From: a virus
Length of the DNA: 47,912 nt
Strand: one strand, 5' to 3'
Virus record (IMG/VR): IMGVR_UViG_3300050026_000188
Shown: piece after piece, positions 962 to 47,200 of the stretch
How the letters are laid out: each line of letters begins with the position of its first letter
How positions within the stretch are numbered: the stretch's first letter is position 1
Made by a program: the position numbers and the translations under genes
The notes under the pieces: model-generated
The model's database searches: none
What the model was told of the DNA's origin: nothing
Seen by the model: only the letters and a program-made list of their open reading frames with translations

Positions 962-1639
962 ATGAAGTTTTACGTTTACGCCCACAAAACGATATCCCCG
1001 CGTAAGGCGGGCGAGGTCTTTTATATCGGCAAAGGGCAGCGACGGCGCGCTTGGCTCGCAACTGGGCGCAATCCTCACTGGCAACGGGTTGCATCCAAGT
1101 ATGGATTCTCCGTCATTATTCTCGCGGACGGACTAAGCGAAAAGGCGGCTTTTGACCTAGAGAAGTCGATCATTCTCATTTGCGGCCGGGCGGCTCTCTG
1201 TAACCTTACAGACGGCGGCGAAGGCATCTCGGGTGCTTCGGAAGAGATTTGCCGGAAGATCAGCGAGCGTCACAAGGGTAAACCCAAGAGTGCTCAGCAT
1301 AAACAGAAAATAGCGGCATCGCATAAGGGGATTCGGCCATCAGAAGAAACCCGAGTCAGACTCAGAGCACGCCGACCGTCCGAAGAAACTCGCGCAAAAC
1401 TCAGTGCTTCTCAAAAGGCTCGCAATATAACCGCTCCCTCAGATTTTGCCGAGCGTAGCGCTTCCATGCGAAAGGCCGTTACTTGCTCCAACGGCATGAT
1501 CTTTGATTCGGTTAGTGCTGCTGCCACATGGGCTCGGAAGAACGGCTTCCCGAAAGCGGCTACAAGCAATATCAGCAACGTCTGTAATGGCCATCGCCCA
1601 TCAGCTTGCGGTGGCCTGACCTGGGCATTCGTCAAATGA
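962..1639 (+). CDS. GIY-YIG homing endonuclease with NUMOD3-like repeats
   Basis: N-terminal FYVYAH...GEVFYIGKG...R motif (GIY-YIG); twice-repeated SEETR..L (NUMOD3-like); free-standing immediately upstream of the large terminase. Confidence 0.8.
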   Translation: MKFYVYAHKTISPRKAGEVFYIGKGQRRRAWLATGRNPHWQRVASKYGFSVIILADGLSEKAAFDLEKSIILICGRAALCNLTDGGEGISGASEEICRKISERHKGKPKSAQHKQKIAASHKGIRPSEETRVRLRARRPSEETRAKLSASQKARNITAPSDFAERSASMRKAVTCSNGMIFDSVSAAATWARKNGFPKAATSNISNVCNGHRPSACGGLTWAFVK

Positions 1640-3099
1640 TTTCCATTACTGAGGACGAAACCGAGGAAGCCGCTGCCGAAGAGATATTCGCCCGTCGCAA
1701 CGGGCAGAAGACGATGTACGGGTATATCAAATACACGATGCTTGGTTATAAAACATCGACATTTGCCGAACGAGTATGCGCGGCGATTGACAAATTTATA
1801 ACTGATGTGCAAGCGGGCAAGCGTCCGGTTTTGATTCTTCAAGCTCCCCCGCAGAGCGGAAAATCTGAAATAGCTTCTCGCAAACTACCGGCTTATTTAC
1901 TTGGCAGGTTCCCCGATTGGCGCATTGCGGCTTGCAGTTATGGTGATGAATTGGCTGGAGCAATGGCGCAAGATGTTCGCCGAAATATCAACTCGCTTGA
2001 GCACCAAAAGCTATTTCCAGCCCCGGAAGAAAAGAAGAAATACGACGTAAACCGAATGGGAGATTTTACTGCGCCAGGTGGCACTGGCAGTTATTTGGGG
2101 GTGGGTGTCGGGGGCGGTCTTACTGGCAAGAGCGCGACCATTGGAATCATCGATGATCCAATCAAAAACGAAAAGGAAGCGCTCAGCGTTACAACTAAAG
2201 AGGGGCTATGGTCTTGGTATCAAGCTACTTTTACAACGCGGCTTTCCCAAAATTCAGGTCAAGTCATAATGGCTACATCTTGGGCGGTCGATGATCTGGT
2301 TGGGCGCATCATCGATCACTTCGCCGGCGATCCCCGTCTTACTCATTTGCGATTCCCGGCGATCAACCTGCCCGATGAAGTCGGATATAACCCCAAATTA
2401 CCAGAAGGTGCTCTCGTTCCCGAGCTTCACAGTCTCGAAAAACTATATGAGACTAAAGCTCTTTTTTCCGATTATTGGTTTTCATGCTTGTATCAGCAGA
2501 GCCCGAAGGCTCTGGGCGGCAACGTCTTCAAGGATTTTTGTATTCAGTATTACAACCCGAACGATCTGCCGAAGAAATTTGACAAGGTAATAGCGTCTTG
2601 GGATTGCACTTTCAAAGACACGGACGGGACCGATTTCGTAGTCGGGCAGGTATGGGGCAAAAAGGGAGCCAACAGTTATCTACTTGATCAGATCCGCGCT
2701 CGCATGAGTTTCAGCGTTACATGCAAAGCCATCGTTACCCAGAAACTAAAATGGCCGCAGATTCGCGAGGTGCTGATTGAGGACAAGGCTAACGGACCGG
2801 CAGTTATTGACGTGCTCAAGGCTCAGGTGCCTGGCATCATCCCGATTGAGCCCGACGGCTCGAAGCTCGCCCGCGCCCATGCGGTTACATGCTACTGGGA
2901 AGCGCTCAACGTATGGCTTCCTAATGAAGCTCTTTGCCCGTGGATAAAGGCTTACGTCTCCGAGATGACTACCTTCCCGGCGGCCGCCCATGATGATCAA
3001 GTGGATAGTACGACTCAGGCGCTCCGCCGGCTCTATCCCTTATTCGGAAGGCTCAAAATAAATCGGAATGCCATAAACAAGGCACTTGGGATAAGGTAA
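1636..3099 (+). CDS. terL: Terminase large subunit
   Basis: Walker A-like PQSGKSE, Walker B-like IGIIDDP, C-terminal nuclease motifs (ASWDCTF, AAAHDDQVDS); the ATG at 1636 overlaps the endonuclease stop (ATGA); the ORF track starts at 1606 with an alternative codon. Confidence 0.85.
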   Translation: MISITEDETEEAAAEEIFARRNGQKTMYGYIKYTMLGYKTSTFAERVCAAIDKFITDVQAGKRPVLILQAPPQSGKSEIASRKLPAYLLGRFPDWRIAACSYGDELAGAMAQDVRRNINSLEHQKLFPAPEEKKKYDVNRMGDFTAPGGTGSYLGVGVGGGLTGKSATIGIIDDPIKNEKEALSVTTKEGLWSWYQATFTTRLSQNSGQVIMATSWAVDDLVGRIIDHFAGDPRLTHLRFPAINLPDEVGYNPKLPEGALVPELHSLEKLYETKALFSDYWFSCLYQQSPKALGGNVFKDFCIQYYNPNDLPKKFDKVIASWDCTFKDTDGTDFVVGQVWGKKGANSYLLDQIRARMSFSVTCKAIVTQKLKWPQIREVLIEDKANGPAVIDVLKAQVPGIIPIEPDGSKLARAHAVTCYWEALNVWLPNEALCPWIKAYVSEMTTFPAAAHDDQVDSTTQALRRLYPLFGRLKINRNAINKALGIR

Positions 3100-3105: not shown

Positions 3106-4614
3106 ATGACCTGGCTCCGTAATTTGTGGGATCGCTTCCGTAAGACACCCGCGCCGTTCTCAGTGACACCCGCCCCCGAACGTGGGGAGGGCTTAGCGCG
3201 GGCTCTCGCGAAGGCGAAAGAGACGGGCGGCCGCAAGAGCTATTGCTATCCCGTCAAGGCTCCCGATCTGATGCCCGGAGTTGTGCCCGCCACTGCGAAA
3301 TCTGGGATCGCGATGGATGCGAATTTCTCCGCGATGAATGGGGTACCAGGCGCGGCCGGCTACGCTTATGGTGATTCCGCCGGCTTCCCGGGATACCCCT
3401 ATCTCGCTATGCTCGCGACTCGCGCCGAATATCGGGCGTTTGCGTCCACCCTGGCGACAGAACGCACGCGGGAATGGATCGTGCTCAATAGCACGGATAC
3501 CGCCGGCGATGAGACGAAGACGAGGATCACCGAACTTACTCAAGCGCTCAAAGATATCAAACTGCAAAAGGTTATTCGGCGAGCGGCAGAGCAGGATTGT
3601 CTTTACGGCCGCGGGCAGATCTTTATCAAGATCAAGGGCGCTGATGACTCCCTTCCGCTCATCCTCAGCAATAAGACAATCAAAAAGGGCAGTTTCGACA
3701 GCGTTACGAATGTTGAGCCCATTTGGACAACGCCCAGCGCTTACAACGCTCTTGATCCAACGGCCGCGGATTTCTACAAGCCTTCTAAGTGGTGGATGCT
3801 CGGGAAGGAAGTTCATGCGAGCCGGATGATGACGATGATCACGCGGGAACTTCCGGACATACTCAAGCCCGCCTTCAATTTCAGCGGCATGAGCTTGAGC
3901 CAACTTGCAGAGCCCTATGTTGACAATTGGCTTCGCACGCGCCAGAGCGTCTCAGATCTGATCAATAACTTCTCAATCACTGCTCTCAAAACCAGCATGG
4001 GGCAAGTATTACAGGGCGGAGATGGACCGGACGCCGATGGTACCGATCTCTTTGAACGCGCCGATTTATTTACGGCCGGCCGAAGCAACAAAGGGCTCAT
4101 GCTGCTCGATAAGGACAGCGAAGAGCTAGTGCAAGTAAACACGCCCCTGGGCGGCCTGCATGAGCTTCAAGCGCAAGCTCAAGAGCAGATGTGTTCCGTT
4201 AGCCGTACCCCGGCGATCATCCTTACTGGCATCTCTCCGAGCGGGCTAAACGCTTCGAGTGAGGGCGAGATCAGCACATTTGAGGATTGGAACGCCGCTC
4301 TGCAAGAAGCCTATGATCGCGAGCCGATAGAAACAGTGCTCAAGGTTCTACAACTTTCGATGTATGGCGAGATTGATCCCGATATTACTTTTGCGTTTGT
4401 CCCGTTGCGGCAGATGACAAAGAAAGAACTCGCGGAGATCCGGACGGCCGACAGCACCACGGCCGGAACTTACATTGACCGCGGCGTGATCTCTCCGGAG
4501 GAAGAGCGCGAACGCCTGGCGCGAGATCCGGATAGCGGGTACCAGGGGCTAGATATGAGCCTTGAAATTGCAACTCCAAATGAGGGGAATACAGACAATG
4601 AAGACGATGAATAA
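3106..4614 (+). CDS. Portal protein (DUF1073-like)
   Basis: About 500 aa ORF directly after the large terminase; by-eye resemblance to DUF1073-type portals; acidic C-terminus. Confidence 0.65.
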   Translation: MTWLRNLWDRFRKTPAPFSVTPAPERGEGLARALAKAKETGGRKSYCYPVKAPDLMPGVVPATAKSGIAMDANFSAMNGVPGAAGYAYGDSAGFPGYPYLAMLATRAEYRAFASTLATERTREWIVLNSTDTAGDETKTRITELTQALKDIKLQKVIRRAAEQDCLYGRGQIFIKIKGADDSLPLILSNKTIKKGSFDSVTNVEPIWTTPSAYNALDPTAADFYKPSKWWMLGKEVHASRMMTMITRELPDILKPAFNFSGMSLSQLAEPYVDNWLRTRQSVSDLINNFSITALKTSMGQVLQGGDGPDADGTDLFERADLFTAGRSNKGLMLLDKDSEELVQVNTPLGGLHELQAQAQEQMCSVSRTPAIILTGISPSGLNASSEGEISTFEDWNAALQEAYDREPIETVLKVLQLSMYGEIDPDITFAFVPLRQMTKKELAEIRTADSTTAGTYIDRGVISPEEERERLARDPDSGYQGLDMSLEIATPNEGNTDNEDDE

Positions 4615-5128
4615 GAAGGTTTTGTTGGGGCTCATGCTGCTAGTTTGCGTCACGGTTGCTTTTGCCGCGGTCAACGTAAAAGGTTTGATCGTTGACGCGC
4701 TTACGGGCTACACAGTGGCCGGCGCTGCCCCGAATAACTACACACTATGCGGTAACGGGACCGTGGGCACTTACCAGGCGTCATGCGGCGCGGCGGCTCC
4801 TGTTCGCACTTGCAACGCTAACGGCTGCTATATCCGATACTCAGACGGTACAATACACGCCTGGGGAACGATCACCACGGCGTCATCAGGCGGAACGCTT
4901 TCGAGCGGTACGATCACTTTCCCCACGGCATTTACAACTGTCGTGCAAAGTCTGTTGGTTTCTGGACAGAGTCAACCTGACAGCACAGACGACGCATACG
5001 TTACTTACACGAAGAGCGGAACGACTAGCGGCGCTACCGTAGTAATACGGTGCTCCATCAACATTAGCGGATCTGGTTGCTCTTCACTAAACGCCGTTCC
5101 CGTTGGCTGGATAGCCGATGGATACTAA
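4598..5128 (+). CDS. Small secreted protein with an H-type-lectin-like C-terminal domain
   Basis: ATG at 4598 with GAGGGG upstream; MKTMNKKVLLGLMLLVCVTVAFA-AV signal-peptide-like N-terminus; C-terminal ITFPTAFTTVVQSLLV...VTYTKSGTTSGATVV...VGWIADGY pattern. Confidence 0.45.
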   Translation: MKTMNKKVLLGLMLLVCVTVAFAAVNVKGLIVDALTGYTVAGAAPNNYTLCGNGTVGTYQASCGAAAPVRTCNANGCYIRYSDGTIHAWGTITTASSGGTLSSGTITFPTAFTTVVQSLLVSGQSQPDSTDDAYVTYTKSGTTSGATVVIRCSINISGSGCSSLNAVPVGWIADGY

Positions 5129-11564: not shown

Positions 11565-12079
11565 TGCCCGCGCCTATACCCTTTCTGGCTTCGATCAGCA
11601 TTGACGCCGTAATCGAAGCCCTGGGCGCATTCCTGCAGCCATTCGTAGGAGCCGCACAGATCATCCGCGCCCAGGTGAATCGCGTTGCTCCGCCGGCCGC
11701 GCCTTACGTGGAACTCACCGAAATTCTGCAGGTACCGCTAGAGACTCCGATTGACGTAGACAACGGAGCCAACGCGCAAACGGACATTACCGGACCAAAG
11801 CGGATCGATATTCAAATTGACTTCCGCGGTCCCGCTTCGGGCGACTGGTGTACAGCCGTAACAACTATTTACCGGAGTCCTTACGCGCCGGCTCAATTTC
11901 CCGATGGCATAAAACCGTTGTATTGTTCGGACGGTCATCAGATGCCGCTTACCACGGGTGAGCAACAATACGAAACCCGTTGGACGCTTACGGCGAGCTT
12001 GCAGTACAATCCGACTGTAAGTATTCCGCAACAGTCCGCTAATACTTTGGCGGTAAATATTATGGAGGCTTCGCAATAA
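11564..12079 (+). CDS. Hypothetical structural protein (possible tail terminator)
   Basis: ATG at 11564 (MPAPIPFLASI...); immediately upstream of the sheath gene. Confidence 0.3.
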   Translation: MPAPIPFLASISIDAVIEALGAFLQPFVGAAQIIRAQVNRVAPPAAPYVELTEILQVPLETPIDVDNGANAQTDITGPKRIDIQIDFRGPASGDWCTAVTTIYRSPYAPAQFPDGIKPLYCSDGHQMPLTTGEQQYETRWTLTASLQYNPTVSIPQQSANTLAVNIMEASQ

Positions 12080-13602
12080 TGACTATTCCCGCGTCTCGAA
12101 TTGCAAGAGTAAACCCCGGCGTTGTGAATAGCGGCGGAACGTCGCTGGTGATGAATGGGCTCTTCCTCACTCAAAATACCGCGATGCCCACGGCTTCGGC
12201 TTTCAACTTCGCGAGCCCCACGGCGGTAGCAAATTTCTTCGGTCCAGCATCCGCCGAAGCCGCCCTAGCAAAGATCTATTTCGCCGGCTACAGCAATTCC
12301 ACGATCAAGCCTGGCGGGATGATCTTCGCTCCCTTCAATCTTGCCGCTCGCTCCGCCTTCCTGCAGAGCGGATCGCTCGCCGGATTGAGCCTGGCACAGC
12401 TTGAAGTGCTGAGCGGTACGCTCATCCTCACCGTTGCCGGCGTGGTAGAGACTTCGGCCGCGATTGATCTGTCTACCGCCGGCAGTTTCAGCGGCGCGGC
12501 TACTCTCATTCAAGCCGGTTTCACAACTCCCCCCTTCACCGTTGCGTGGAATCCCGTTACCAGTGCGTTCGTGATCACCACCACGGCAACCGGCGCAACG
12601 GAGACGATCACTTTCGCAAGCGGGACGCTCGCCGCCGGGCTCAATCTGACTCAGGCAACCGGCGCGATTCTCTCGCAGGGAGCCGCGCTCGATACGCCGG
12701 CTACCGCAATGGCGAACGCCGTGCGCGTGACGCAGAACTTCGCGAGCGTTGTAACGCTATGGGAGCCGACTCTCAGCGATAAGGAAGGCTTCGCGGCCTG
12801 GTTCAATGCGGCCAACCTTGAATATCTGTATCTCGGTTGGGATTCCGATCCGAACGCATCGGTACTCGGAAATACAACCTGTTTCGGCGCGGTAACGAAG
12901 GCCGCTCAGTGGAACGGCGTTGCGTGCATCTCCGGAGATCCGGCGTTAGCTCTCGCGAGCGGCACCACTCTCGCCGCGCTCGCGCTCAACGTCGCTACGT
13001 TCGTGGCCGGCGCGATTGCTTCGATCAACTCCGGCGCAACCAACGGGCGCGTTACTCTCGCCTTCCTTGCTCAGTCGGGGATGGCTCCCACGGTTGCAGA
13101 CGATCAGATCTCTCAGAATTTGCTCGCGAACGGTTACAGCTTCTACGGATCGTATGCGACGGCGAATGATGGCTTCGTTTTCTTCTACAACGGGCAGATG
13201 CCGGGCGAGTTCGGTTTCATCGATTCCTTCGTCAATCAGATTTACCTCAACGCACAATTTCAGTTGGCGATGCTCACGTTGCTTACCAACATCGGAGACT
13301 TCCCCTATACCCCATCCGGTTACGGGTTGCTTCGTTCGGCGCTGATGGACCCTATCAATGCGGCGCTTGCTTTCGGAACGATTCGCACGGGAGTTACTCT
13401 TTCGGCCGCGCAGATCTCCGAAGTCAACCTGGCCGCCGGCGTTGACGCTGCAAGCGTGATTCAGACGGCCGGCTACTACCTGCAGATCCTTGACCCTGGC
13501 GCTCAGGTTCGCGGGCTCCGCGGCAGCCCTATCGTCAACTTCTGGTATAGCGACGGCGGCGCGGTCCAATTTATCAACATGGCAAGCATTGACATTCTGT
13601 AA
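12079..13602 (+). CDS. Tail sheath protein (DUF3383-like)
   Basis: 507-aa ORF followed by a tube-like gene, then chaperone with frameshift and tape measure: the contractile-tail order. Confidence 0.65.
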   Translation: MTIPASRIARVNPGVVNSGGTSLVMNGLFLTQNTAMPTASAFNFASPTAVANFFGPASAEAALAKIYFAGYSNSTIKPGGMIFAPFNLAARSAFLQSGSLAGLSLAQLEVLSGTLILTVAGVVETSAAIDLSTAGSFSGAATLIQAGFTTPPFTVAWNPVTSAFVITTTATGATETITFASGTLAAGLNLTQATGAILSQGAALDTPATAMANAVRVTQNFASVVTLWEPTLSDKEGFAAWFNAANLEYLYLGWDSDPNASVLGNTTCFGAVTKAAQWNGVACISGDPALALASGTTLAALALNVATFVAGAIASINSGATNGRVTLAFLAQSGMAPTVADDQISQNLLANGYSFYGSYATANDGFVFFYNGQMPGEFGFIDSFVNQIYLNAQFQLAMLTLLTNIGDFPYTPSGYGLLRSALMDPINAALAFGTIRTGVTLSAAQISEVNLAAGVDAASVIQTAGYYLQILDPGAQVRGLRGSPIVNFWYSDGGAVQFINMASIDIL

Positions 13603-13911
13603 CTGAAAGAGGGCAGCATTTTGGACACTTCGATCAATGCGGCGCTCGCCTTCGGAGCCATTCGCACGGGCGTTACGCTTTCGGATGAGCAGATCTCCGA
13701 AGTCAACCAGGCCGCCGGCGTAGACGCTGCAAGCGTGATTCAGACGGCCGGCAACTACCTGCAGATCCTTGACCCTGGCGCTCAGGTTCGCGGGCTCCGC
13801 GGCAGCCCTATCGTCAACCTCTGGTACGCCGATGGTGACGCGGTCCAAACCATAACGATGGCAAGCATCGACATTCTGTAACTGAAAGAGGGCAGCATTT
13901 TGGACACTTCG
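13354..13911 (+). repeat. Tandem duplication, two 279-bp units (13354..13632 and 13633..13911), about 90% identical
   Basis: Base-by-base alignment: about 25 substitutions in the 249 coding nt, none in the 30 nt of stop + AGAGGG + TTG start region. Confidence 0.85.
13621..13881 (+). CDS. Free-standing paralogue of the sheath C-terminal domain (86 aa)
   Basis: Begins with the same AGAGGG-TTG-GAC-ACT-TCG as the tube gene, then encodes a diverged copy of the last 83 aa of the sheath. Confidence 0.4.
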   Translation: MDTSINAALAFGAIRTGVTLSDEQISEVNQAAGVDAASVIQTAGNYLQILDPGAQVRGLRGSPIVNLWYADGDAVQTITMASIDIL

Positions 13912-14334
13912 ATAACCTCAGCAAATTCCGTATTCACGATCTCTGTCCCCGGCTTGTTTCCTATCCCTCAGCAGTTGAAGGGATACTCCGCAGAGAAGGC
14001 TTGGAGCAGCGATAACCTCGACCTGGCAGAGACTCAGATGGGCGTAGATGGCCGCTTGACCGCCGGCTATACCCCGATGGCTGTAAAGCAGACGATCAGC
14101 CTGCAGGCCGACTCCCCGAGTAAGCAGATCTTCAAAACCATTCAGGCCGCGACTCGGGCGGCGCGGGATGTGTATTACATAAACGGCACGATTGATCTGC
14201 CGTCCACGGGTGAATCCTTCATCGGTACCCGCGGCGTGCTGCAGGCAGTGAAGCCCCTTCCGGACGCCGGCAAGGTTTTGCAGCCGATGGAGTTTGCAAT
14301 TGTGTGGGAGAGTCTGGTGCCCACTCTCCTGTAA
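13900..14334 (+). CDS. Tail tube protein (DUF3277-like)
   Basis: About 145 aa directly after the sheath; TTG start with AGAGGG upstream; YINGTIDLP region. Confidence 0.65.
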   Translation: MDTSITSANSVFTISVPGLFPIPQQLKGYSAEKAWSSDNLDLAETQMGVDGRLTAGYTPMAVKQTISLQADSPSKQIFKTIQAATRAARDVYYINGTIDLPSTGESFIGTRGVLQAVKPLPDAGKVLQPMEFAIVWESLVPTLL

Positions 14335-14370
14335 ATATGACAGAAGAAACGATGGGGGTTTAGGTAACTA

Positions 14371-14832
14371 ATGAATTACAGCAAAAATGCGCCGGCCTTC
14401 GCAGCATCGTTTGAGGGGTACTCGCCCGTTTCGGTGCATCATCCGGAAGATCCCCCGGACGTATGGACAATGGGATTTGGCTCAACATATTGGAGCGGCG
14501 CGAAGGTAACTGAGGGTATGACGTGTACCCGCGATGAAGCGCTCTTGCAGTTGGCGGGCGGCCTTGAGAGTGCGGCGCGATGCGTCAATCTCTCGCTGCA
14601 TGTGACCGTAACCCAGGACGAGTTTGACGCTTGCACGGATCTTACTTACAACATCGGCTGCTCGCGCTGGCAGGAATCCACCGCGAGGGAGCGGCTCAAC
14701 GCTGGGGATTACGCTGGCGCAGCATCAGCCTTCGAGATGTGGGATCGTGCGGGCGGCGTAGTGATGGCAGGATTGCTCCGACGCCGGAAGGCTGAGGAAG
14801 TTCTATTTGATACGCAGGGAGTATCGGCATGA
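14371..14832 (+). CDS. Lysozyme, glycoside hydrolase family 24 (T4/P22-type muramidase)
   Basis: FEG...D...WTMGFGST catalytic block (Glu/Asp/Thr) and C-terminal NIG...LNAGDY...W...GG...GLLRRRKAEEVLF pattern. Confidence 0.8.
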   Translation: MNYSKNAPAFAASFEGYSPVSVHHPEDPPDVWTMGFGSTYWSGAKVTEGMTCTRDEALLQLAGGLESAARCVNLSLHVTVTQDEFDACTDLTYNIGCSRWQESTARERLNAGDYAGAASAFEMWDRAGGVVMAGLLRRRKAEEVLFDTQGVSA

Positions 14833-15296
14833 GAAAGACGGCGAGTTATACAGTCACGCAAGAGGGCCGCGATCTCGGCAAGCGCTTCCTCATAACTGAG
14901 ATGGGCGCAGCGCAGGGGGAGTCGTGGGCGGCGCGGGCTCTGCTCGCACTGATGGCGAATAACGCGGAGATCCCCGAAAACTTTGCAGAGCTCGGAATGG
15001 CCGGGCTTGCTGAGTTGGGACTCAGGGCGCTGAGTAGTCTTCGCTGGGAAGTCCTCTCCCCCTTGCTTGAGGAAATGATGGCCTGCGTTCAAATCATTCC
15101 CGATGCCAAAAAGACTCAGGTTGTGCGTTCACTCATTGAGGACGATATCGAAGAGATTGCAACGCGGCTCAGTCTGCGTTTGGAGTGGTGGGAGTTGCAT
15201 ATGGGTTTTTTGCAAGCCGTCGCCCCCTCAATCTTAGGACACGGGCCGGCGGCGAAGGACGCCCCCCGGCGAGCTACAGCAACGTCCCGAAGATAA
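14829..15296 (+). CDS. Tail assembly chaperone (gpG-like); -1 frameshift predicted to extend it to 15418
   Basis: Position between tube/lysozyme and tape measure; overlapping -1-frame ORF 15185..15418; slippery heptamer in the overlap. Confidence 0.45.
   Translation: MRKTASYTVTQEGRDLGKRFLITEMGAAQGESWAARALLALMANNAEIPENFAELGMAGLAELGLRALSSLRWEVLSPLLEEMMACVQIIPDAKKTQVVRSLIEDDIEEIATRLSLRLEWWELHMGFLQAVAPSILGHGPAAKDAPRRATATSRR
15203..15209 (+). other. Programmed -1 ribosomal frameshift site, heptamer G GGT TTT
   Basis: Zero-frame codons ATG GGT TTT TTG; the -1 frame reads GGG TTT TTT and stays open to 15418. Confidence 0.5.
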
Positions 15297-15493
15297 TTGG
15301 GATACTGATCTCCCGGCGCATGGCGACGCTGCATGAGTTACAGACTTGCTATGGAGTGGAAGACGCTCACAACATGTTGGAAGTGGTGATTGTAGACGAT
15401 GCCAACAGACAGACATAAACTCGATCTCCAACGCGAACGATACGCCAATATGACTTCTGAAGAAAAGGTAGCTTGGCGTGAGAGGGCGTCCGG

Positions 15494-17275
15494 ATGCCTA
15501 CAATCATAGATTCTTTAGTAGTCAGCCTAGGCCTCGACTCCAAAGACTTGGATGCGAAGAGCGGCTCTGCGGGCAAGAAGCTAAAAGAAGTTGAGGGGCA
15601 ATCTGCAAAGACTGAGGGCGGCGTAAGGAAGATCGGCGTCGCCAGCAAAGAGGCGGCGGTCGGAGTCGGCGGGCTAACCCGCACGCTGGGGAGCTTCCTC
15701 GCGCTCATCGCCGGAACGATGGCGATCAAGGCGTTTGCATCCGACTTCATCGATGCCAACGCCGCATTGCTACGACTCTCTCAGAATCTCGGTCTAGGCG
15801 TCTCAACTATCTCAGCGTGGGGGAAAGCCTCCGAAGAGCTCGGCGGGAGCGCGGCGGGGCTGCAGGGCACGCTAGACATGCTCTCAATGTCGCAGACGGA
15901 GCTTCGTCTAACCGGGCAATCCTCTCTGATCCCCTATTTCTCAGCGCTCGGGGTATCGCTCGCCGACGTGAACGGCAAGGCGCGGCCGGTTGACGCAATT
16001 CTTTTGGATCTCGCAGATCGCTTCTCTCGTATGGACCGGACAACCGCAAACAACATGGGCCGGATGATGGGGATCGATCAAGGGACCATGAACCTGCTTT
16101 TGCAGGGGCGCAAAGAGCTTGAGCTAACGATCAAGCGCCAGAAGGAAAGTACGGCGGTCACGCAGAAGCAGGCCGAAGCCGCCCAGAAGCTACAGACTCA
16201 GATTGTGGAGACGAAGCAAAAGTTTACGGCGCTTGGGAATGCGCTGATGCTTGAGGCAGCGCCGGCGCTTGAGAGACTCGCTGATCTCTTCCTTCGCCTG
16301 GGCAACTGGGTACTCGACAATGAGGAACTCGTAACGGACTTCCTGAAGGTGATGGCGGTCGGGCTGGGAGCAATCGCGCTCATAACTGCCCCGATCAATC
16401 TCGCAGTGGTTGCCGTACTCGCGCTCGCCGCTGGCATCGCGCTGCTCTGGCAGGACTATCAGGTATGGAAGCGCGGCGGTACATCCTTTATCGACTGGGC
16501 GAAGTGGGAGCCTGAGATTAGGATGGCTACGAAGGCCATCACTCTTCTAGGCGACGCCATAGCGCGAGTGATCGGGCTCAAGAGCCAGCCTGCAAACAAT
16601 CACGCCCCAGGCTCGGGGTACACCCAACTCAAGGACAACGCCCCCGCGGGCTGGGCGAGTCCGGGCGGCGGTGAGCCCGGGGGCGCGGCCACTGGTGAGC
16701 AGATCAAAAAGTATTTCGAGGGGCAAGGATGGAGTTCCGCTCAGGCCGCCGGCATTGCTGCAAACTTTATGCGCGAGAGTGTCGGCCGAACTAAGGCACC
16801 GGGGGACGGCGGTCACGCATACGGTTTAGGGCAGTGGCACTCAGACCGGCAAGCCAACTTTGCGAAATTTGCCGGGCACAGTATCAAGTCATCTACTCTC
16901 CCTGAGCAATTGGCTTTTGCTCAGTACGAACTTACTCACGGTGAGAAGAGGGCGGGAGATGCGCTCCGCGGGGCGACTAACGCAGGGCAGGCCGGCGCGA
17001 TTGTGTCACGGATGTATGAGCGGCCGGCAGACGCAGACGGCGAAGCGAGACTGCGCTCATCTCTCGCTCTGGCGCTCGCGGGCGTCGGCGGGGCAACCGG
17101 CGCAATCGCGGCGGCGAGCCCCACGCCGGCGGGCTCTGGCGTGTCTTCGAGCGATAGCAGCGTTACAAACCATATCGGAGAGATCAAGGTTTACACGGCT
17201 GCCACTGATGCGAACGGCATCGCTCGGGGCATGAACTTCCTCTTCACCAGCCAGGCTAATGCGGGGCTCAACTAA
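15494..17275 (+). CDS. Tape measure protein with C-terminal lysozyme-like domain
   Basis: Long helical, Ala/Leu/Gln-rich protein with a hydrophobic segment (VMAVGLGAIALITAPINLAVVAVLALAAGIALLW); C-terminal GIAANFMRESVGRT...HAYGLGQW...R block resembling phage tail lysozyme domains. Confidence 0.8.
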   Translation: MPTIIDSLVVSLGLDSKDLDAKSGSAGKKLKEVEGQSAKTEGGVRKIGVASKEAAVGVGGLTRTLGSFLALIAGTMAIKAFASDFIDANAALLRLSQNLGLGVSTISAWGKASEELGGSAAGLQGTLDMLSMSQTELRLTGQSSLIPYFSALGVSLADVNGKARPVDAILLDLADRFSRMDRTTANNMGRMMGIDQGTMNLLLQGRKELELTIKRQKESTAVTQKQAEAAQKLQTQIVETKQKFTALGNALMLEAAPALERLADLFLRLGNWVLDNEELVTDFLKVMAVGLGAIALITAPINLAVVAVLALAAGIALLWQDYQVWKRGGTSFIDWAKWEPEIRMATKAITLLGDAIARVIGLKSQPANNHAPGSGYTQLKDNAPAGWASPGGGEPGGAATGEQIKKYFEGQGWSSAQAAGIAANFMRESVGRTKAPGDGGHAYGLGQWHSDRQANFAKFAGHSIKSSTLPEQLAFAQYELTHGEKRAGDALRGATNAGQAGAIVSRMYERPADADGEARLRSSLALALAGVGGATGAIAAASPTPAGSGVSSSDSSVTNHIGEIKVYTAATDANGIARGMNFLFTSQANAGLN

Positions 17276-18027
17276 TGCCGCCGGCAACAAACATTCCGTA
17301 CCCCAACGTTCCCGCGGTCCCGGGCGTGCCCCAGCTATTGCGTCAGGTGGGCGCGGTTGCGCCGATACCCGTTGTGACAATCGGGATCGGCGCTCTCGAA
17401 AACATCCTGGGCGCGGCGCTGCAACAGGCTCCGCAGTGGGGCATCTTCGACGCAGCCGGCAACCAGGTTGGCATCAGCCCCAACAGTTCTGCAACGCTCC
17501 TGGCAGCCATCGGTAACGCTGCACTGAGCCTGCTCTCGGGCGCGAGTGCGGTCCTCTCCACTTTTGGATTCGATTATATGAAAGAGATGGTAGTGAGCGA
17601 TTTCCCCGTTGAAGGGGGATCGTTCGCCAGCTACAACAAAGTAGAGAAGCCGGGCAACCCCGTGGTGACTCTAGCGCTCGCCGGTAGCGTGAGTGACCGG
17701 ACAACGTTTCTCAACGCTATCGATGCTGCTACCAAATCAATCAACGCCTATAGCGTCGTGACGCCCGAGATCACCTATTCCAATTACACTCTTGAGCGCT
17801 ATCGCTATCAGCGGCGAGCGGAGCGGGGCGCGACGCTGCTTATGGTCGAAGTGTCGCTCAAGCAAGTTCGGGGCGTGGTAGCTGCATTTACTACCGTGAC
17901 TGTCACTCCTATCGTCAATCCCCAAGATCCCGGCGCTACGTCTCAAGTGAGTAACGGACCTACGCAACCGATAGCGCCGCCGACTTCTACGTTTAAGTCA
18001 CTTGCAAATAAACTGGGGCTCCACTGA
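17275..18027 (+). CDS. Tail/baseplate protein, unassigned
   Basis: First ORF after the tape measure; start overlaps its stop. Confidence 0.35.
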   Translation: MPPATNIPYPNVPAVPGVPQLLRQVGAVAPIPVVTIGIGALENILGAALQQAPQWGIFDAAGNQVGISPNSSATLLAAIGNAALSLLSGASAVLSTFGFDYMKEMVVSDFPVEGGSFASYNKVEKPGNPVVTLALAGSVSDRTTFLNAIDAATKSINAYSVVTPEITYSNYTLERYRYQRRAERGATLLMVEVSLKQVRGVVAAFTTVTVTPIVNPQDPGATSQVSNGPTQPIAPPTSTFKSLANKLGLH

Positions 18028-18350: not shown

Positions 18351-18488
18351 CGCCGGTTAGCAGCCCGATAATCCTAAATGCTATTCTGGTAAAGAAGAAC
18401 CGCTTAGAGCTTTCATCGGGCGCGGGCACGAGGGTAATCATGGTTTTTATTATGGAGAATTGTTGACTGTACTGTCAATAGCTAAATT

Positions 18489-19406
18489 ATGATCGGTTCC
18501 TTCCAAAATAAAAAAGAGCTTCGCTTCGTCATCACGCTCGCGACGGGGAGCTTCGGCTCAAGCTCTGCTAACCAGGTAACTCTTGAGGGGCTTCGTGCCA
18601 CTGCCGAAATTGACAAAGGCGGCGGCCAGATGAACGCCACTCTTTGCGCTCAAATTTACGGCGTGGCTCAAAGTGACATGAATGCGGTAACAACCCCGTG
18701 GGGACCACGCTATATCAATCGTAATACGATTTTGGTTTATGCCATCGACGGAGCGCAGGAGACGCTAGTATTTGCGGGAGAGATTGTAAACGCCTGGGGC
18801 AACTATCAGCAGATGCCTGATGTCTTCCTACAAATACAGGCTCAAGCTGGCGTGATCAATCAGCTTCAACCTATCCCTCCCACTAGCTACAAAGGCACCG
18901 TGGATGTTGCCACTCTGATGGCTCAACTCGCGGCAACGATGGGATACAAGTTTGAGAATAACGGCGTAAGCGTCCCGCTCGTAAATCCCTACGTGGCAAA
19001 CACCGGAATCGAGCAAGTAAAGTCTCTAGCGAAGCAGGCGGGAATAGGATGGGGACTTGATAACGGTGTACTCTTCATAGCGCCAGCAGATACGCCACGC
19101 GGGAGCTTGATCCCCCTGATCTCCTCTCAAACTGGGATGATCGGATACCCGACGTATGACAATCATGGGATCAATATCAGAACTCTTTTCAATCCGGCTA
19201 TCGTCTACCACGGGGCGTTCAAGGTAATCAGTTCGGTGCCGCGCCCGATGGGATCTCTCGATACTCAAGGCGCTGCTCTCGCGCCCAGTCTAATCGGACA
19301 ATGGGTAGCATTTTCAATCGCTCACAGTCTTTCGAGCGAGAAGCCGGGCGGCCCCTGGTGGAGCACAGTGAGAGGAAACCCCAGTGGCTTCGCAATCTCC
19401 AATTAG
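18489..19406 (+). CDS. Baseplate hub-like protein
   Basis: About 305 aa ORF just upstream of the spike-like gene. Confidence 0.4.
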   Translation: MIGSFQNKKELRFVITLATGSFGSSSANQVTLEGLRATAEIDKGGGQMNATLCAQIYGVAQSDMNAVTTPWGPRYINRNTILVYAIDGAQETLVFAGEIVNAWGNYQQMPDVFLQIQAQAGVINQLQPIPPTSYKGTVDVATLMAQLAATMGYKFENNGVSVPLVNPYVANTGIEQVKSLAKQAGIGWGLDNGVLFIAPADTPRGSLIPLISSQTGMIGYPTYDNHGINIRTLFNPAIVYHGAFKVISSVPRPMGSLDTQGAALAPSLIGQWVAFSIAHSLSSEKPGGPWWSTVRGNPSGFAISN

Positions 19407-25041: not shown

Positions 25042-25290
25042 TCACTGTTTGAACGAACTACCCGTCTCACTGCCGTCAACCGTGGCGTCGGCGACAACCC
25101 ATACAACAACGCCGCCCGGCTTAGTCACCCGGTATAACTCGCGGGCGAGAGCTTCAAAATTCCAAGAAAATCCCTTGTATTCGCGGAGGTTGTCATACGG
25201 AGGGGACGTAACTGTTAGCTGTACACTCTCGCTCGCTACAAGGCAACTGAGAGCCATCACGTTATCGCAGTTATATAGTTGCATAGCCAA
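25042..25290 (-). pseudogene. Truncated beta-class N6/N4 DNA methyltransferase (N-terminal fragment only)
   Basis: 82 aa carrying motif IV (TSPPY) and the following YRVTKPGGVVVWV block, then a stop; no downstream FxGxG motif; start overlaps the polymerase stop. Confidence 0.5.
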
Positions 25291-27265
25291 TGTCCCTCAA
25301 TATCGCGTGGCAATTGTCGAGATACCAGGCGTAGTCAATGTCATCCGGCAGTGAGTCCGGCAGAGTCAGGCAGGGCTTAGCGCCGTAGCTGAGGCTTACG
25401 GTGTTGCCGTTAGTGTTGTAGATGATTGAGCCGGGCGCGGATGTCGAGTAGTAGAATCTGATCACTTTGCCCATATACTCGGGCCGTTGCGGGGTGAAGC
25501 AAGATGCGTAAGCGCTCCCCGCATCCGCCAGCACGCCCGCCCGCTGCCATTTACGGCCGCTCTTCACCCATCCGTTAGCCTGCAGAGTGGCCGTCATATC
25601 GCGTATCTTTGTGCCCTTGAGCGGTCCCTCGCCCCAGAGCTTCACAGCGCCGCCGGCAACCTTGCGGACTGTCACAAATTTGCGGATATCCCGGCTCGCG
25701 GCGAGCGTATAAAGGATCGGCGTCCCCTTGCTGAGATATTCGGCCACGGCATCTGAGCAGATCTCCACATCGGGATTCTTCTTTTCGACCAGGCCGGCCT
25801 TTGAGTATTCCCCTTTGCGCTTTACCTTCCCGTCGATCTTCACTGCAAAGTAATTATTTACGTCTTTGGAATAAATGGCCTTGTAAGTATTGCTTTCCAT
25901 CTCCAAACCCGTGCTCCGCTCCCACTCTTCGATGAGCCGATCGCTCGAAGCGAGCAGATGGCGCGGGCAAAATGCCACAAACCCGTCAGTATTCGCAGAC
26001 ACAACAGGGATGCCGTTCGATTCATGCCACTCAATCAGCATCATGAGCGCAAGTTGCCCGGTGATGGTGGTTTGAATGAGCATCTCAGGGGCGAAAAGGA
26101 TGGAGAACGGGCTCCCAGTCTTCCCGAAAACGCCGTTGATCATAATCTTGCCGCCCTCGTTCTCTACCTCAGCCTTCGTGTATTCGGGAGTTCCTTTAGT
26201 AAGTGTTTTCTGTAGAGCCTTCGCCTTCAGACGCTCATCTTTGATCGCTGCATACTCATGCAGGAACGCGGGGCCGAGAGCCTTCGGATATTTTCCGGAG
26301 TTCAAGATCAGACTGGGATAGTAGCTGGCAACATCCGAATCCCTGAGTACAGCGTTTTCGTCGCTTCGGTACGCCACGCGCTTCTCGGAGGAGTGCAGGC
26401 CGCCGATCCCGAGCCGGTAGCGCGACGAGCCGATTTGGATCTCAAGTCCGTCTAGCTGGGCGGGCATGACGACGGAGCCACTCGGGCCAAGCCGGAATAC
26501 GGCCTCTCTGACCAGGGAGAACGCCTGCATGAGAGGTGCCGTCTGAAATTTGAGGAAGGATGGCGGCTCGTATTTGAAGACCAGATTCCAGTCAATCTCA
26601 GGCTTATAAATCTTCTGACCTAGAGCCTGCTCACAGCGGCGCTTTAGAACGGCTTCGGCAAGCTGAGCATCTGACTTACTTCGCAGATCAATCCCGTAGC
26701 GCTTGCTCAACTCCTGGCGCTGGTGGAGTTGGGGCGCGAGTGCATCGAATAGCCCCTCTAGGACTGAGAGATCATTTCCGCAATAGTCGTCTACTTCGGC
26801 GATCTCCGCAGGCGTGAGGTATTGATCCGGCGAGTAGGGAAGATCTCGCATCGTCTTGCAGTGGATTCGACCTGCGTACTGCTTTTGGCTGCCCGCGCCT
26901 GGCGCTACTTCCATCACATCGATGTGATCAGCCGGCCGCCACTCGGGGAGCCCTAACTCCCAGGGCTTTAGCTTCTGGACAATGATTTGATCATTGAGCC
27001 ATTTGAGTTGATCTGGGGTATAGCCCGAGAGCGCCGCGGCGATCATCGGTACATCGTAGTAATTGCCGTTGAAGCTCACGGTTGTAAAGATCTGGAATAG
27101 CGTGGTGATGCTCGCAACCGCCGCGGGCTCTAACCTCTCGCCCGCCCTCAGCGCGAACGTAAAGCATTCGCCGCCCTGAGGACGGAACTTGAGAAGCCAA
27201 AAGTTAGGAAAACATTCTGTGTCGTAAAATGCTACCGGCTTACCTGATGGTGGAGTGGGGATCAT
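25271..27265 (-). CDS. DNA polymerase, family B, with 3'-5' exonuclease
   Basis: Exo motifs FYDTE, NGNYYD, YCGND; Pol motif A DVASYYPSLI, motif B KIMINGVFGKTG, motif C variant SANTDG. Confidence 0.75.
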   Translation of the reverse strand: MIPTPPSGKPVAFYDTECFPNFWLLKFRPQGGECFTFALRAGERLEPAAVASITTLFQIFTTVSFNGNYYDVPMIAAALSGYTPDQLKWLNDQIIVQKLKPWELGLPEWRPADHIDVMEVAPGAGSQKQYAGRIHCKTMRDLPYSPDQYLTPAEIAEVDDYCGNDLSVLEGLFDALAPQLHQRQELSKRYGIDLRSKSDAQLAEAVLKRRCEQALGQKIYKPEIDWNLVFKYEPPSFLKFQTAPLMQAFSLVREAVFRLGPSGSVVMPAQLDGLEIQIGSSRYRLGIGGLHSSEKRVAYRSDENAVLRDSDVASYYPSLILNSGKYPKALGPAFLHEYAAIKDERLKAKALQKTLTKGTPEYTKAEVENEGGKIMINGVFGKTGSPFSILFAPEMLIQTTITGQLALMMLIEWHESNGIPVVSANTDGFVAFCPRHLLASSDRLIEEWERSTGLEMESNTYKAIYSKDVNNYFAVKIDGKVKRKGEYSKAGLVEKKNPDVEICSDAVAEYLSKGTPILYTLAASRDIRKFVTVRKVAGGAVKLWGEGPLKGTKIRDMTATLQANGWVKSGRKWQRAGVLADAGSAYASCFTPQRPEYMGKVIRFYYSTSAPGSIIYNTNGNTVSLSYGAKPCLTLPDSLPDDIDYAWYLDNCHAILRDIGYATI

Positions 27266-28104
27266 TACGCAGCGGCCGCGGCCTTCGGTTTGATCTCTTC
27301 AACGTAGAGATAAAGATCTAGCAAGAGCTTGCGATCAACTTCGATAAACTCCCCGTACTCTTCATCAGCGAGCATCCCGGCCACGTCTTCGAGGGCGGCA
27401 GTAACGCGCCGGATGAGTTCGGGATCGCGAGCAACCGGCTTCGGAACTTTGACCGCGCCCGGTTTCTTTACGTCGCTCCGCTCGATAGTGCCCTCTTTTT
27501 TCAAAACCTCATGCTGCTGAGCTTTGCTGAGCTTCGCGATTGCAACGGCCGCCGACTCTTTGACCCGGCCGGATTTCACCGCTTCGGCGGCTTCCTCTGA
27601 CAGAGAGATAAGCGCGATGCGGTCCTTTACGAACTTGTGGGCGGCCTTGAGTTCGCCCTCAGTCTTCGCGGTCGGGAAGTAGACGCCGGCGATCTGCTCA
27701 TCCGTCATCGCGTAGACGTTGAGAAGCCGCTTGATGTTGTGAGCGTCGTCAAGGGGAGTTGCGGGATTGCGAAAGCGATTCTCTGAGATGTTGATCAGAA
27801 ACGCTTCGCCTTCGCTGCATTGCACGTAGGTACAACGAACCTGCAGTTTGACCGGCGCGAGCCCGCGCTTGTTGATCTCGCTGATCGCACGCCAGCGAGA
27901 GAAGCCGGCAACCAGGACGGCCGCGCCGCCATCGTTGCGGATGACAACCGGCGTATGCTGCCCGCGCGCCAGGATATCGGTAATGAGCCATTCAATCTCA
28001 GGCTTTTCGTGACGACCGTTGAGATCGGGCTTGATCGTAATGTCTTCAGGGTAGAAGCGATACTCGGAGGTTCGCTTATGCTCAACTGCAAACTGTACTG
28101 CCAT
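27265..28104 (-). CDS. ParB-like nuclease-domain protein
   Basis: N-terminal TPVVIRNDGGAAVLVAGFSRWRAI block resembling the ParB N-terminal domain. Confidence 0.6.
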   Translation of the reverse strand: MAVQFAVEHKRTSEYRFYPEDITIKPDLNGRHEKPEIEWLITDILARGQHTPVVIRNDGGAAVLVAGFSRWRAISEINKRGLAPVKLQVRCTYVQCSEGEAFLINISENRFRNPATPLDDAHNIKRLLNVYAMTDEQIAGVYFPTAKTEGELKAAHKFVKDRIALISLSEEAAEAVKSGRVKESAAVAIAKLSKAQQHEVLKKEGTIERSDVKKPGAVKVPKPVARDPELIRRVTAALEDVAGMLADEEYGEFIEVDRKLLLDLYLYVEEIKPKAAAAA

Positions 28105-44231: not shown

Positions 44232-47200
44232 CTAGTTACCAATGCAAATATAGCGAATTGCGTCACTACCTAAACCGCCATCATCTGAAAATGTCACCGA
44301 CGATCCACTTGTGTAAGTAACTCCCAGTGCGTTAAGATTGATGGTGCTGACTGTTGCGCTCGTCATACAGGCATAAGAGGATGAACTGGTAAATATGGCT
44401 GACCCGCTAAATGTCACCGTTGCAGCACCACCAGAAAGCGTCGTCAAGCCCATCACTGTGTGCGCAGATGTCAGTTGCGTCCCGGCGGCGTTGTAGAGCG
44501 TTCCACCAGGGCACCCCGTCCCATCCGCAAGGCAGTGGGCTTCTGGTACTCCGCTACCATTCAAGTCTGTGCTGCCCGCTCCTGCTGAAGATACACCTGT
44601 GCTACTTACTTGAAACTGGCTACTTGAACCAACGGATAGCAACGCCGCTGGCGAAGTCGTCCCGATGCCGACGTTGCCTTGGAAAATACCTCCACCTGTT
44701 CCAACCCACAGACTCTTCCAACGTTGGCCCGTAACCCCAAGGTTAATCGTATTATCGAAGGCGGGGGCCGGATTAAGACCAGTTGCGGTTAATTGCATTA
44801 CATCCTCATAAGCTGGGGAACCCGGCAGCTCAAAAGCGAGCGTGGTATACGTGCTCTGCGCACCAATCCTTAAAACATTATAGGTGCTGTCCAAATATAT
44901 AAAGGCTGGCGGCGTCTGCCCATTTATTACGATTGGGTTGGCAAAGACTGTAGGATTTCCGGCGATAGTCAGGCCGCCCGTGCGCAATGCGCCAGTGCCA
45001 AGATCAAGAGCCTGTACAGGGCTCGTCGTCCCGATACCGACGTTGCCGTTATTATCTATCCTGACCTTTTCCGTTGGTCCACTAAGACCATCATTTTGCG
45101 TGAGAAAACGAATCTGCGATAGTGTATTTTGCGAACCAGATACGATGTCAAGTATTCGTGCATAGATGCCTGCCGTTGGGAAATTTTGAGCTTGGTAAAA
45201 ATTGAAAACACCTTGGTCACTAATACCATATGTTCTTAAATTAGTATCAGTAGACGGATTTCCCAAAGACAACTGCCCACTCGGCCCCGTCGTCCCGATG
45301 CCGAGTCTATGATTCGTCGCATCCCAGAAGAAATTGGAATTGTCTTGTGCGATGGTTGAGCCATTTGAGAACAACACGGAGCCAGAGGTTAGCGAAGGCA
45401 AAGTGAATGTCCCGTAAGTATTTGTGTCCAGCGCAAACGTCCCTGCTGCCGTCATCTTTACGAATGGTGTGCCCGTAGTCCATGTCGGATAATTCAACGC
45501 GCCCCATGTGCCTACGGAAGGCAGAGCCGTGCATCCCCCGCTGGACATCAATGCGCCAGAGCAAGAGCCGGAACCAAACAGCGCCGTTATATCGCTGTAT
45601 AGCGGAGTGCGCCACGCCGTGTTCCCACTATTCGCCACGCCAATCGTGTTTGCTCCGGGGTAGGTCATGGTACTGCCCGGAGTCTGCCATCCCTGAGCTG
45701 TTGCCCCAGAGTTCATCCCCCAGACTTGGTTTGCCGTGCCGTTGGTGCTGAGGTTTGTGGCTGTGGATGAGTTGCCAGTAAAAGCGGCTCCATGAAGTGT
45801 CGCTAATCCGGCTGCACTACCGAAGTATTCATCAGTTACCGCAGCATTGCCAATTACTGCTGTGTTGGAACCTGCTCCAACTGCCGTCGATCCTACTACA
45901 ATTTCGTTTGTGTTACCATTCGCACTTGCCTGTGTGTTCTGCCCCAGGAAAGTCCCGTAGCTACCCGTTATATTATGATACCCAGTAGGAAGTAAAGTTC
46001 CTGCTAAATAGCCCGCTGCTGTATTACCATTGCCCGTAGTAGTGAACTGAAGCGCCCCACTTCCAATTCCGGTACTGTAACTCCCAGAAGAGTTTGTAGC
46101 TAGGGTATTATTTCCGATTCCTATGTTATTGCCCCCACTTGTAAGATTGTAGAGGGCAGAGTCCCCTAAGCCTATATTGTTACTACCTGTCTCTATGCCA
46201 CCGTAACCTATTGCCTCAGCACCTATCGCGATATTGAATGATCCAGAGGCACCAAGTAGGTTTGATGTACCTATGGCAATGTTCACTGTGCCGGTAGAAC
46301 TTGCTAAAGTGCTACTATTACCGATGGCAATCGAACTAGCTCCTCCATACGTCAAGGGCAAACCGCCCCCTAAATTCAGATTAGAAGATGGGATGGTATA
46401 AATTGCGACCCCACTATCCTGAACCTGGTCCCCTGTTCCGGTAAAGGTTACGGCATCATTGGCGGTTGCGCTGCCGGGTCCGGTGACTGGGTTGGTAAGC
46501 GCGAGTTGGAAGTCCGTAGCCGCATGAGTCGCCGCCGTCCCTACCGTTGTAGAACAGCCGCTCGCTCCGTTGCTCAGATCGCCACATGCTGCTTGACTGA
46601 ATGTTGCGCTGCCGTTCGACTTGACCGCGCCTGTCACGGCCCCCGCGTTGTCCGCCTTCGTGCCTTGTGCCGCCGTGGCATAAGCCGTGGACGCGGTGTA
46701 AGCCGCCGACCCAACCGCACCGCTGCCAAGCAGCACCGAGCCACTTCCATAGGTACTTAGCTCGCCCAGCACGCCGCTGTTGTTGTACTCGATGTGGCCA
46801 GTCGTGCCACCCGCAATCGTCGTGGTGCCTACGGTGATCGTTCCAGCAGATGCGGATATGGTACAGGTTCCACCCAGGGCGCAGTTCTGGCCGTTGACCG
46901 TAGTCACCGAGTTTGCTAAGGCTGCGTTCGGTACCGCCTCATACGTCACCGTGTTCGTACCGGTCACTACCGGTACGGTGTTGGTTGAAGGGCTGGAACC
47001 GTAGCTAACTCCATTCACCACTGCAACCGTGGGAGTTGCGGTCGTCACTGCTGTCAACTGCCCCGCTGCGTTGTAGGTGATAACTGGTATCGCTGTCGCG
47101 CTTCCCGTCGGCCCTGCCGCCGTAATGACCCCACCCGAGGGGACGTGGCTTGCCGATGTGCCGATAGGGAGGTAGGAATAGCCCACAGTCCCAGACGAGA

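Follow-up and report, generated by a model that had tools for sequence, protein, structure and literature searches.

The window, that is, the whole stretch of 47,912 nucleotides that was analyzed, has the appearance of a near-complete phage genome, with genes for terminase, portal, protease, and the major head proteins as well as replication genes. Matches to Pfam and PHROGs profiles identified its tail module as a contractile tail of the E217/Pam3 type. Besides the sheath, tube, and tape measure genes listed in Table 1, this module includes genes for a Dit-like protein, a Pam3 gp18-like plug, and a baseplate hub. The tube gene is followed by gene G, by an open reading frame (ORF) in the −1 frame of G that extends to 15418, and by the tape measure gene. 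An endolysin gene is intercalated between the tube and chaperone genes, and its stop codon overlaps the start codon of G (ATGA). A pair of overlapping ORFs is thus found between the tube and tape measure genes, which is the arrangement by which G/GT-type loci are recognized. A megablast search with positions 12000-18500 against GenBank phages returned zero nucleotide-level relatives, and no promoter-like or terminator-like sites were found near the candidate shift site.

Table 1. Position and basis of the features described at the tail chaperone locus and of the neighboring tail genes
Feature	Position	Strand	Basis or details
Tail sheath gene	12079..13602	+	DUF3383, PF11863; phrog_205 tail sheath
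Tail tube gene, E217 gp32-like	13900..14334	+	PF22764
Gene G, tail assembly chaperone, 155 aa	14829..15296	+	phrog_1932, ORF list
GGAG, Shine-Dalgarno-like tetramer, 8 nt upstream of heptamer 1	15191..15194	+	Sequence
Candidate slippery heptamer 1, G GGT TTT	15203..15209	+	P site GGU to GGG, A site UUU to UUU
Candidate slippery heptamer 2, T TTT TTG	15206..15212	+	P site UUU to UUU, A site UUG to UUU
−1-frame segment after the predicted shift, 69 codons plus TAA	15209..15418	+	Translation, phrog_3976, tblastn
Stem-loop, probable frameshift stimulator	15216..15253	+	Folding, covariance model
Tape measure protein gene, 593 aa, C-terminal tail lysozyme domain	15494..17275	+	PF18013 and tape measure PHROGs

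By sequence and predicted fold, the zero-frame ORF is a member of the tail assembly chaperone family. The G protein matched phrog_1932, "tail assembly chaperone," with an E value of 7e-42 over 130 of the 134 profile positions. Its AlphaFold model (pLDDT 82) was compared with BFVD by Foldseek and retrieved predicted phage tail assembly chaperones (E values of 2e-8 to 1e-5, TM scores of 0.6 to 0.7), a name that in these matches is an annotation and not a tested function. The Pfam search of the G protein matched no family and hence no Pfam chaperone family, and the sequence and fold searches of the PDB with this protein matched no solved structure. Homologues of G numbered 273; the best 120 of these 273 matches were all G-only proteins of 119 to 166 aa, and none of these 120 was an in-frame fused G-T protein. 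An identical G protein was also seen on many metagenomic contigs, the longest being 49 kb.

In the frame of the ATG at 14829, positions 15201-15212 read ATG GGT TTT TTG, within the wider zero-frame context GAG TTG CAT ATG GGT TTT TTG CAA GCC. The first-pass annotation had placed a G GGT TTT heptamer in the chaperone overlap and had described the −1 frame as open to 15418. The codon phase confirmed the heptamer at 15203-15209, and the −1 frame was indeed found to be open up to the TAA at 15416-15418. Its opening reaches back to 15140, and in the ORF list it begins with the GTG at 15185. With (15185−14829) mod 3 equal to 2, the frame relation is −1; a +1 shift was excluded, the +1 frame being open only over 15238..15336. 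A second heptamer, T TTT TTG (15206-15212), which was absent from the first-pass annotation, overlaps the first one, and both have the strict form X XXY YYZ in frame 0.

Strict in-frame heptamers occur at 16 of the 7185 codon positions in the plus-strand genes of the window (0.0022 per codon), and about 0.1 would be expected by chance in the 52-codon overlap. Taken by itself, the heptamer is thus only mildly improbable. Among the 16 heptamers, the −1 frame passes the zero-frame stop only for the pair at 15203/15206 and for the one at 19376. The codons of the site are all minority codons in the window, GGT accounting for 12% of Gly, TTT for 35% of Phe, and TTG for 14% of Leu codons.

Past the predicted shift, translation in the −1 frame would add a basic RR motif, a Gly-rich linker, and a conserved T domain (about 15272-15415). 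The predicted G-T fusion has 196 aa, namely, 127 frame-0 residues followed by FASRRPLNL...DDANRQT from frame −1, and its residues 148-195 matched phrog_3976, a PHROGs family of "unknown function" (E = 4e-16). When the fusion was searched against GenBank phages by tblastn, 34 matches were obtained at an E value of ≤1e-5, and 30 phage records matched it as two pieces in different frames. The hosts of these two-piece phages are Burkholderia, Aeromonas, Pseudomonas, Pantoea, Klebsiella, and Acetobacter. Among nine aligned fusions, conservation was highest in the T part, with the motif LATLHELQTVYG..D...LEI..V...N and the invariant positions ATL.EL.T.Y..D...E. The zero-frame product is predicted to release the tryptic peptide LEWWELHMGFLQAVAPSILGHGPAAK, and the fusion would yield the junction peptide LEWWELHMGFFASR after a shift on G GGU UUU or LEWWELHMGFLASR after a shift on U UUU UUG.

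The site stands well beyond chance because it is conserved at the homologous codon in relatives. A scan of genome contigs with the single fusion protein as the query found no relative. IMG/VR was scanned as well; 586 relatives were confirmed and 80 loci retained. The frame relation was tested at 89 loci by running tblastn once with G and once with T as the query. T was in the −1 frame relative to G at all 89 of these related loci. Strict heptamers of the form GGGTTTT, TTTTTTN, or both were present in 77 of the 89 loci at the codon that corresponds to Phe127; GGGTTTT was found at this position in 43 and TTTTTTN in 66. The combination seen in the window, GGGTTTT plus TTTTTTG, was the type of 32 loci, while TTTTTTT was found in 17, GGGTTTT alone in 9, TTTTTTG alone in 7, and other heptamer combinations in 12. 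The 12 loci with no strict heptamer mostly read GAT TTT TCN, and a T5 run was still present in most of them. What is common to the family is the run NNT TTT T, with 5 to 8 T residues, and not GGGTTTT as such. With these 12 of 89 loci, part of the family falls outside the canonical two-tRNA model.

Synonymous codon choice at the site was strongly biased. The Phe127 codon was TTT in 76 of the 80 unique loci, compared to 36% TTT at the other Phe codons of these genes, and codon 126 ended in T in 77 of 80, compared to 16% third-position T elsewhere. The amino acid at codon 126 was Gly, Asp, Ser, Ala, or Asn. The corresponding binomial p values (7e-29 for Phe127 and 5e-58 for codon 126) overstate the independence of the loci, which are phylogenetically related; despite this kinship, the synonymous-codon effect spans deeply diverged lineages. 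GGT at codon 126 nearly always follows a G, so that GGGTTTT is complete, and the commonest relatives read AAA TTG CAC ACG GGT TTT. At five loci (L058, L069, L072, L085, and L087), a −1-frame TGA directly precedes the T-run (within xT GAT; xT AGT in L072). In four of them (L058, L069, L085, and L087), the overlap of the two frames is only 25 nt long and contains the T-run. At those loci, the shift must therefore occur at the T-run.

We then considered the RNA downstream of the site, where the first-pass annotation had proposed to look for a stem-loop or a pseudoknot. A stem-loop was found that is recurrent in relatives and weak in the window alone, and no convincing partner was found for a pseudoknot. 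The basal stem pairs GCCGUCG (15216-15222) with CGGCGGC (15247-15253), and two inner helices of 3 bp each complete the structure. The stem is separated from GGGUUUU by a spacer of 6 nt and from UUUUUUG by one of 3 nt. The predicted energy is −18.9 kcal/mol, and the z score of −0.08 to −1.28 obtained in the window alone is not distinctive for GC-rich sequence. Across relatives, the 60 nt after the site ranked at a median of the 10th percentile among windows of their own locus, and 80% ranked below the 25th percentile. With dinucleotide shuffles, the mean z score over 67 unique loci was −1.17, compared to −0.10, −0.18, and −0.19 at three control positions in the same genes. The only pseudoknot candidate was a weak 7-bp pairing, AUCUUAG/UUGGGAU, which includes three G·U pairs and lies 44 nt beyond the stem; we treated it as a chance occurrence. 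A search of positions 14800-15600 against Rfam matched no family.

Because loop lengths vary, the 3′ arms could not be aligned by MAFFT, and a covariance model (R1) was built from 12 near-identical relatives. On the plus strand, this model placed the stem-loop at the expected site in 39 loci, one of them the window (41 bits, E value of about 3e-7). Standard pairs filled 92% of the cells, compared to 23 to 64% when the partners were slid by 1 to 3 nt, in an alignment that was itself fitted to the model. Two-sided changes were seen at 7 of the 10 pairs, among them G-C/C-G, G-C/A-U, and U·G/C-G/A-U/U-A. With an alignment fitted to the model and with related loci, this covariation provides moderate evidence for the hairpin. 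Among close relatives (73 to 77% protein identity), L099 and L100 keep the hairpin at equal spacing with a U·G pair changed to U-A, while in L097 the structure is differently placed and the hairpin displaced. In the −1 frame, the nucleotides of the 5′ arm are also those of the conserved Arg-Arg codons, and the 3′ arm falls on Gly-Gly codons in a linker that otherwise varies, which suggests that RNA structure and protein constrain each other. Upstream of the heptamers, the GGAG tetramer was considered as a conserved stimulator similar to that of dnaX and was rejected in this role, being missing from most relatives. In this phage, GGAG could nevertheless act like the internal Shine-Dalgarno sequence of dnaX, whose signal combines such an element about 10 nt upstream with a heptamer and a stem-loop 5 to 9 nt downstream of it.

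Taken together, we propose, with a probability of about 0.9, that ribosomes shift to the −1 frame at 15203-15212 and thereby produce a G-T fusion. Most ribosomes starting at the ATG at 14829 would terminate at 15294-15296 and release the 155-aa G protein, while a minority would slip back by one nucleotide on G GGU UUU UUG and read the −1 frame to 15418. The slip would consist of tRNA re-pairing centered on the tRNA-Phe at UUU 15207-15209. On G GGU UUU, tRNA-Gly would re-pair in the P site and tRNA-Phe in the A site, giving the junction ...HMGF-FASRR. On U UUU UUG, tRNA-Phe would occupy the P site and tRNA-Leu the A site, and the junction would be ...HMGFL-ASRR. G GGT TTT may well be the operative site, and a spacer of 6 nt to the hairpin fits this first route better; TTTTTTN is commoner family-wide, and both heptamers may be used. 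Neither GGGUUUU nor UUUUUUG is among the most efficient shift sites in bacteria, unlike A AAA AAG (PMC5009743). The GC-rich stem-loop probably pauses the ribosome and would thereby raise the shift frequency. By analogy with the model established for lambda G/GT (PMC5009743) and P2 E/E+E′ (PMC3091744), many G and few G-T molecules would coat the tape measure protein, and the T domain may recruit the tube protein so that the tail polymerizes to the correct length. As in lambda and P2, neither G nor G-T is expected to end up in the virion.

A different route to the same polypeptide would be slippage of the RNA polymerase. In this case, one extra U would be added while the T6 run at 15206-15211 is copied, and a subset of the mRNAs would encode G-T in a single frame. 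One inserted nucleotide gives exactly the −1-frame product. In addition, what all family members share is a T-run of 5 to 8 residues and not one heptamer; 12 of the 89 loci have no strict heptamer, and some loci harbor T7 to T8. However, transcriptional slippage typically needs at least 8 to 9 A or T residues (PMC5009743 and general knowledge), and the run here has 6. Moreover, neither the fixed codon phase NNT TTT T nor a G in front of GGT would be needed for it, and a hairpin at a conserved downstream spacing of 5 to 6 nt has the geometry of a ribosomal stimulator. We thus regard this explanation as very improbable.

The ORF 15185..15418 could also be a small gene of its own that is translated from a GTG, with the heptamer being incidental. 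The window does have GTG codons at 15185 and 15188, the T domain is annotated as an ORF of 50 to 60 aa by itself in several GenBank relatives, and PHROGs keeps the T domain as a family of its own (phrog_3976). However, the −1 frame of the window offers no other start codon before the T domain than these two GTGs. With a GGAG that overlaps the GTG at 15185 and is 2 nt away from the one at 15188, neither has a usable Shine-Dalgarno spacing. In the relatives, a recurrent −1-frame GTG at offset −19 is a by-product of a conserved zero-frame Trp codon. A start codon before the T domain was absent in 22 of 79 unique loci, and one with a preceding Shine-Dalgarno core was present in only 3 of the 79. 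On the six contigs with an identical G protein that we examined, no gene was called in the space of the −1 ORF, and the sequence of its product was absent from the protein collection searched. The first-pass annotation had named a functional start of the −1 ORF as an observation that would speak against frameshifting; the survey of start codons and Shine-Dalgarno sequences found no usable one, and by this survey the ORF has no credible start of its own. A separate gene would in addition leave the synonymous-site constraint on the T-run unexplained, and we consider it even less probable than slippage of the polymerase. Least probable of all is a coincidence in which only the 155-aa protein is made. 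Long alternative open frames are frequent in GC-rich DNA, and the roughly 0.1 heptamers expected in an overlap of this size would not make a chance occurrence exceptional. Yet across phages of six host genera, no segment of the locus is more conserved than the one encoded in the −1 frame, and the uniform −1 relation and the strong synonymous constraint add to this, so that coincidence is effectively refuted by the comparative data. The programmed −1 frameshift of G/GT type, as first read from the heptamer and the overlap, is thus supported by the chaperone identity of G, the frame relation (89/89), the conservation of T, the lack of a usable start of the −1 ORF, and the codon bias.

A broader proposal, which we put forward only tentatively and hold to be rather less than an even chance, is that the U-run, the spacer of 5 to 6 nt, and the covarying GC-rich stem-loop form a unified, hitherto undescribed RNA module that is kept in hundreds of genomes of E217/Pam3-type myoviruses. 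The arms of the stem-loop, located in the Arg-Arg and Gly-Gly codons, would shape the linker, and the members with only GAU UUU UCN would shift by slippage of a single tRNA in the P site instead of the canonical two-tRNA route.

The main value of these findings lies in annotation. Here and in nearly all GenBank relatives, the long form of the chaperone is missing or split off as a "hypothetical protein," most of the relatives other than those discussed below being annotated with G alone or with G and a small hypothetical ORF as a second gene. In PHROGs, the T domain appears as families of unknown function (phrog_3976 and phrog_4625), and joining the two frames gives the predicted 196-aa tail assembly protein. 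The family data, with a T-run in fixed phase and a recurrent hairpin, also represent a natural set of variants of a bacterial −1 frameshift signal. The understanding of phage tail assembly and recoding is unchanged, and a specialist would expect such a site upstream of a tape measure gene.

Pairs of chaperones made as a short and a long form from one gene by a −1 frameshift are known in most long-tailed phages. The closest described case is Burkholderia phage ΦE067 (PE067), for which a 204-aa chaperone, gp16.1, has been predicted to arise by a frameshift at 5′-GGGTTTT-3′ at G127 of gp16 (PMC7266877). The ΦE067 gene is homologous to that of the window, with 49% identity to the fusion over both frames (tblastn), and it too lies upstream of the tape measure gene with GGGTTTT at the equivalent residue (G127, compared to G126-F127 here). 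The fusions are also of similar size (204 and 196 aa), both being predicted from sequence. Unlike the window, ΦE067 has no endolysin gene between the tube and chaperone genes. In phiE131 (L001), which is related to ΦE067, GGGTTTT is followed by CTC and the second heptamer is thus missing; here, in contrast to the window, an HNH endonuclease is inserted between T and the tape measure gene. The heptamer of this chaperone family is therefore already in the literature, and the signal is, by its sequence and conservation, real but ordinary. Modestly new are the overlapping second heptamer, the constraint on the T-run, the pinning of the shift by the 25-nt overlaps, and the recurrent covarying hairpin.

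Burkholderia phage BcepB1A (NC_005886) is a more distant relative, in which gp15 E and gp15′ E′ are annotated, as a prediction, as "pre-tape measure frameshift protein." Its T domain is homologous to that of the window (38% identity over 71 aa, E = 3e-6 by tblastn), and the sheath (DUF3383 type), tube, chaperone, and tape measure genes follow in the same order, although the G part is too diverged to be detected by tblastn. BcepB1A has a T TTT TTC heptamer where the overlap starts and does not have GGGTTTT.

In P2, a −1 frameshift at TTTTTTG produces E (91 aa) and E+E′ (142 aa), a short and a long product with a shared N terminus (PMC3091744, citing Christie et al. 2002). As in the window, the tail is contractile and the tape measure gene directly follows the chaperone pair, and TTTTTTG corresponds to positions 15206-15212. 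P2 and its relatives have no downstream hairpin (PMC3091744), in contrast to the recurrent one in the clade of the window. No P2-like record was among the 34 tblastn matches at an E value of ≤1e-5, and nothing but the slippery sequence TTTTTTG is shared. By analogy, the chaperone of the window would thus work like P2 E/E+E′ without being a detectable sequence relative.

Lambda is a siphovirus whose slippery sequence is G GGA AAG, with tRNA-Lys in the A site; its G/GT pair was reportedly studied by Levin in 1993 and by Xu, Hendrix, and Duda in 2004, 2013, and 2014. There, a low-level −1 shift occurs on an X XXY YYZ sequence, and the T domain is made only as part of the fusion (PMC5009743). Although the lambda protein has no sequence similarity to that of the window, the order of major tail protein, G, −1-frame T, and tape measure is the same in both.

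Residues 148-195 of the predicted 196-aa G-T fusion, in which the zero-frame tail assembly chaperone G is joined to the conserved -1-frame T domain, match phrog_3976 and phrog_4625, both labelled "unknown function". These two families appear to represent the chaperone's T domain, which is read in the -1 frame. Many phage annotations give this domain as a separate small ORF. Such stand-alone calling is an annotation artefact, and its correction would be worthwhile.

Further slippery heptamers were found in related loci and in the window. L014-type loci harbor an additional in-frame A AAG GGT in the overlap, directly 3' of the hairpin and approximately 60 nt past the main site (e.g., L014 1052..1058). 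The related locus L013 has no strict heptamer at the main site and carries an additional in-frame A AAA AAA in the overlap (3429..3435), close to the G stop. Because the strict heptamer is missing from the main site, the shift may occur elsewhere in L013. In the window, the only strict in-frame heptamer besides the main site whose -1 frame extends beyond the zero-frame stop is A AAC CCC (19376..19382), which lies in the baseplate hub gene (18489..19406), near its 3' end. Its -1 frame stops after 43 codons and does not reach the next gene, and this heptamer is probably due to chance.

Other ORFs of the window are listed in the table.

Additional ORFs in the window
Feature	Window coordinates	Strand	Location	Match
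Endolysin gene	14371..14832		Within the tail module, between tube and chaperone genes	PF00959, phrog_7
86-aa ORF	13621..13881		Between sheath and tube genes	Pfam PF11863 (sheath family)
Homing-endonuclease-like ORF	962..1639		Directly 5' of large terminase gene (1606..3099)	phrog_314
1220-aa ORF	44232..47894	−		

The endolysin stop overlaps the chaperone start (ATGA, 14829-14832). An endolysin gene is also present at this junction in the closest relatives (L097, L099, L100, and the P0002-carrying contig); the GenBank relatives lack this insertion. In other relatives, genes of other kinds are inserted in this block. In phiE131 (L001), an HNH homing endonuclease (3108..3599) lies downstream of the T ORF and upstream of the tape measure gene, and in Klebsiella phage ST15-VIM1phi2.1 (L008), a Rha-family regulator (1858..2415) separates tube from chaperone. 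The junctions of the tube, chaperone and tape measure genes have the appearance of a hot spot for insertion.

The 86-aa ORF, for which a gene call is present on an identical metagenomic contig, may represent a fragment of the sheath gene or a duplication. The homing-endonuclease-like ORF overlaps the start of the large terminase gene. A Pfam search (E ≤ 1e-5) gave no match for the 1220-aa ORF, nor for the − strand ORFs 25271..27265 and 27265..28104.

Finally, the window has one 593-aa gene (15494..17275) for the tape measure protein, which ends in a C-terminal lysozyme domain. The record of Aeromonas phage 2_D05 (L002) gives this protein as two genes (3111..4163 and 4187..4744), which are named tape measure protein and "tail injection transglycosylase".
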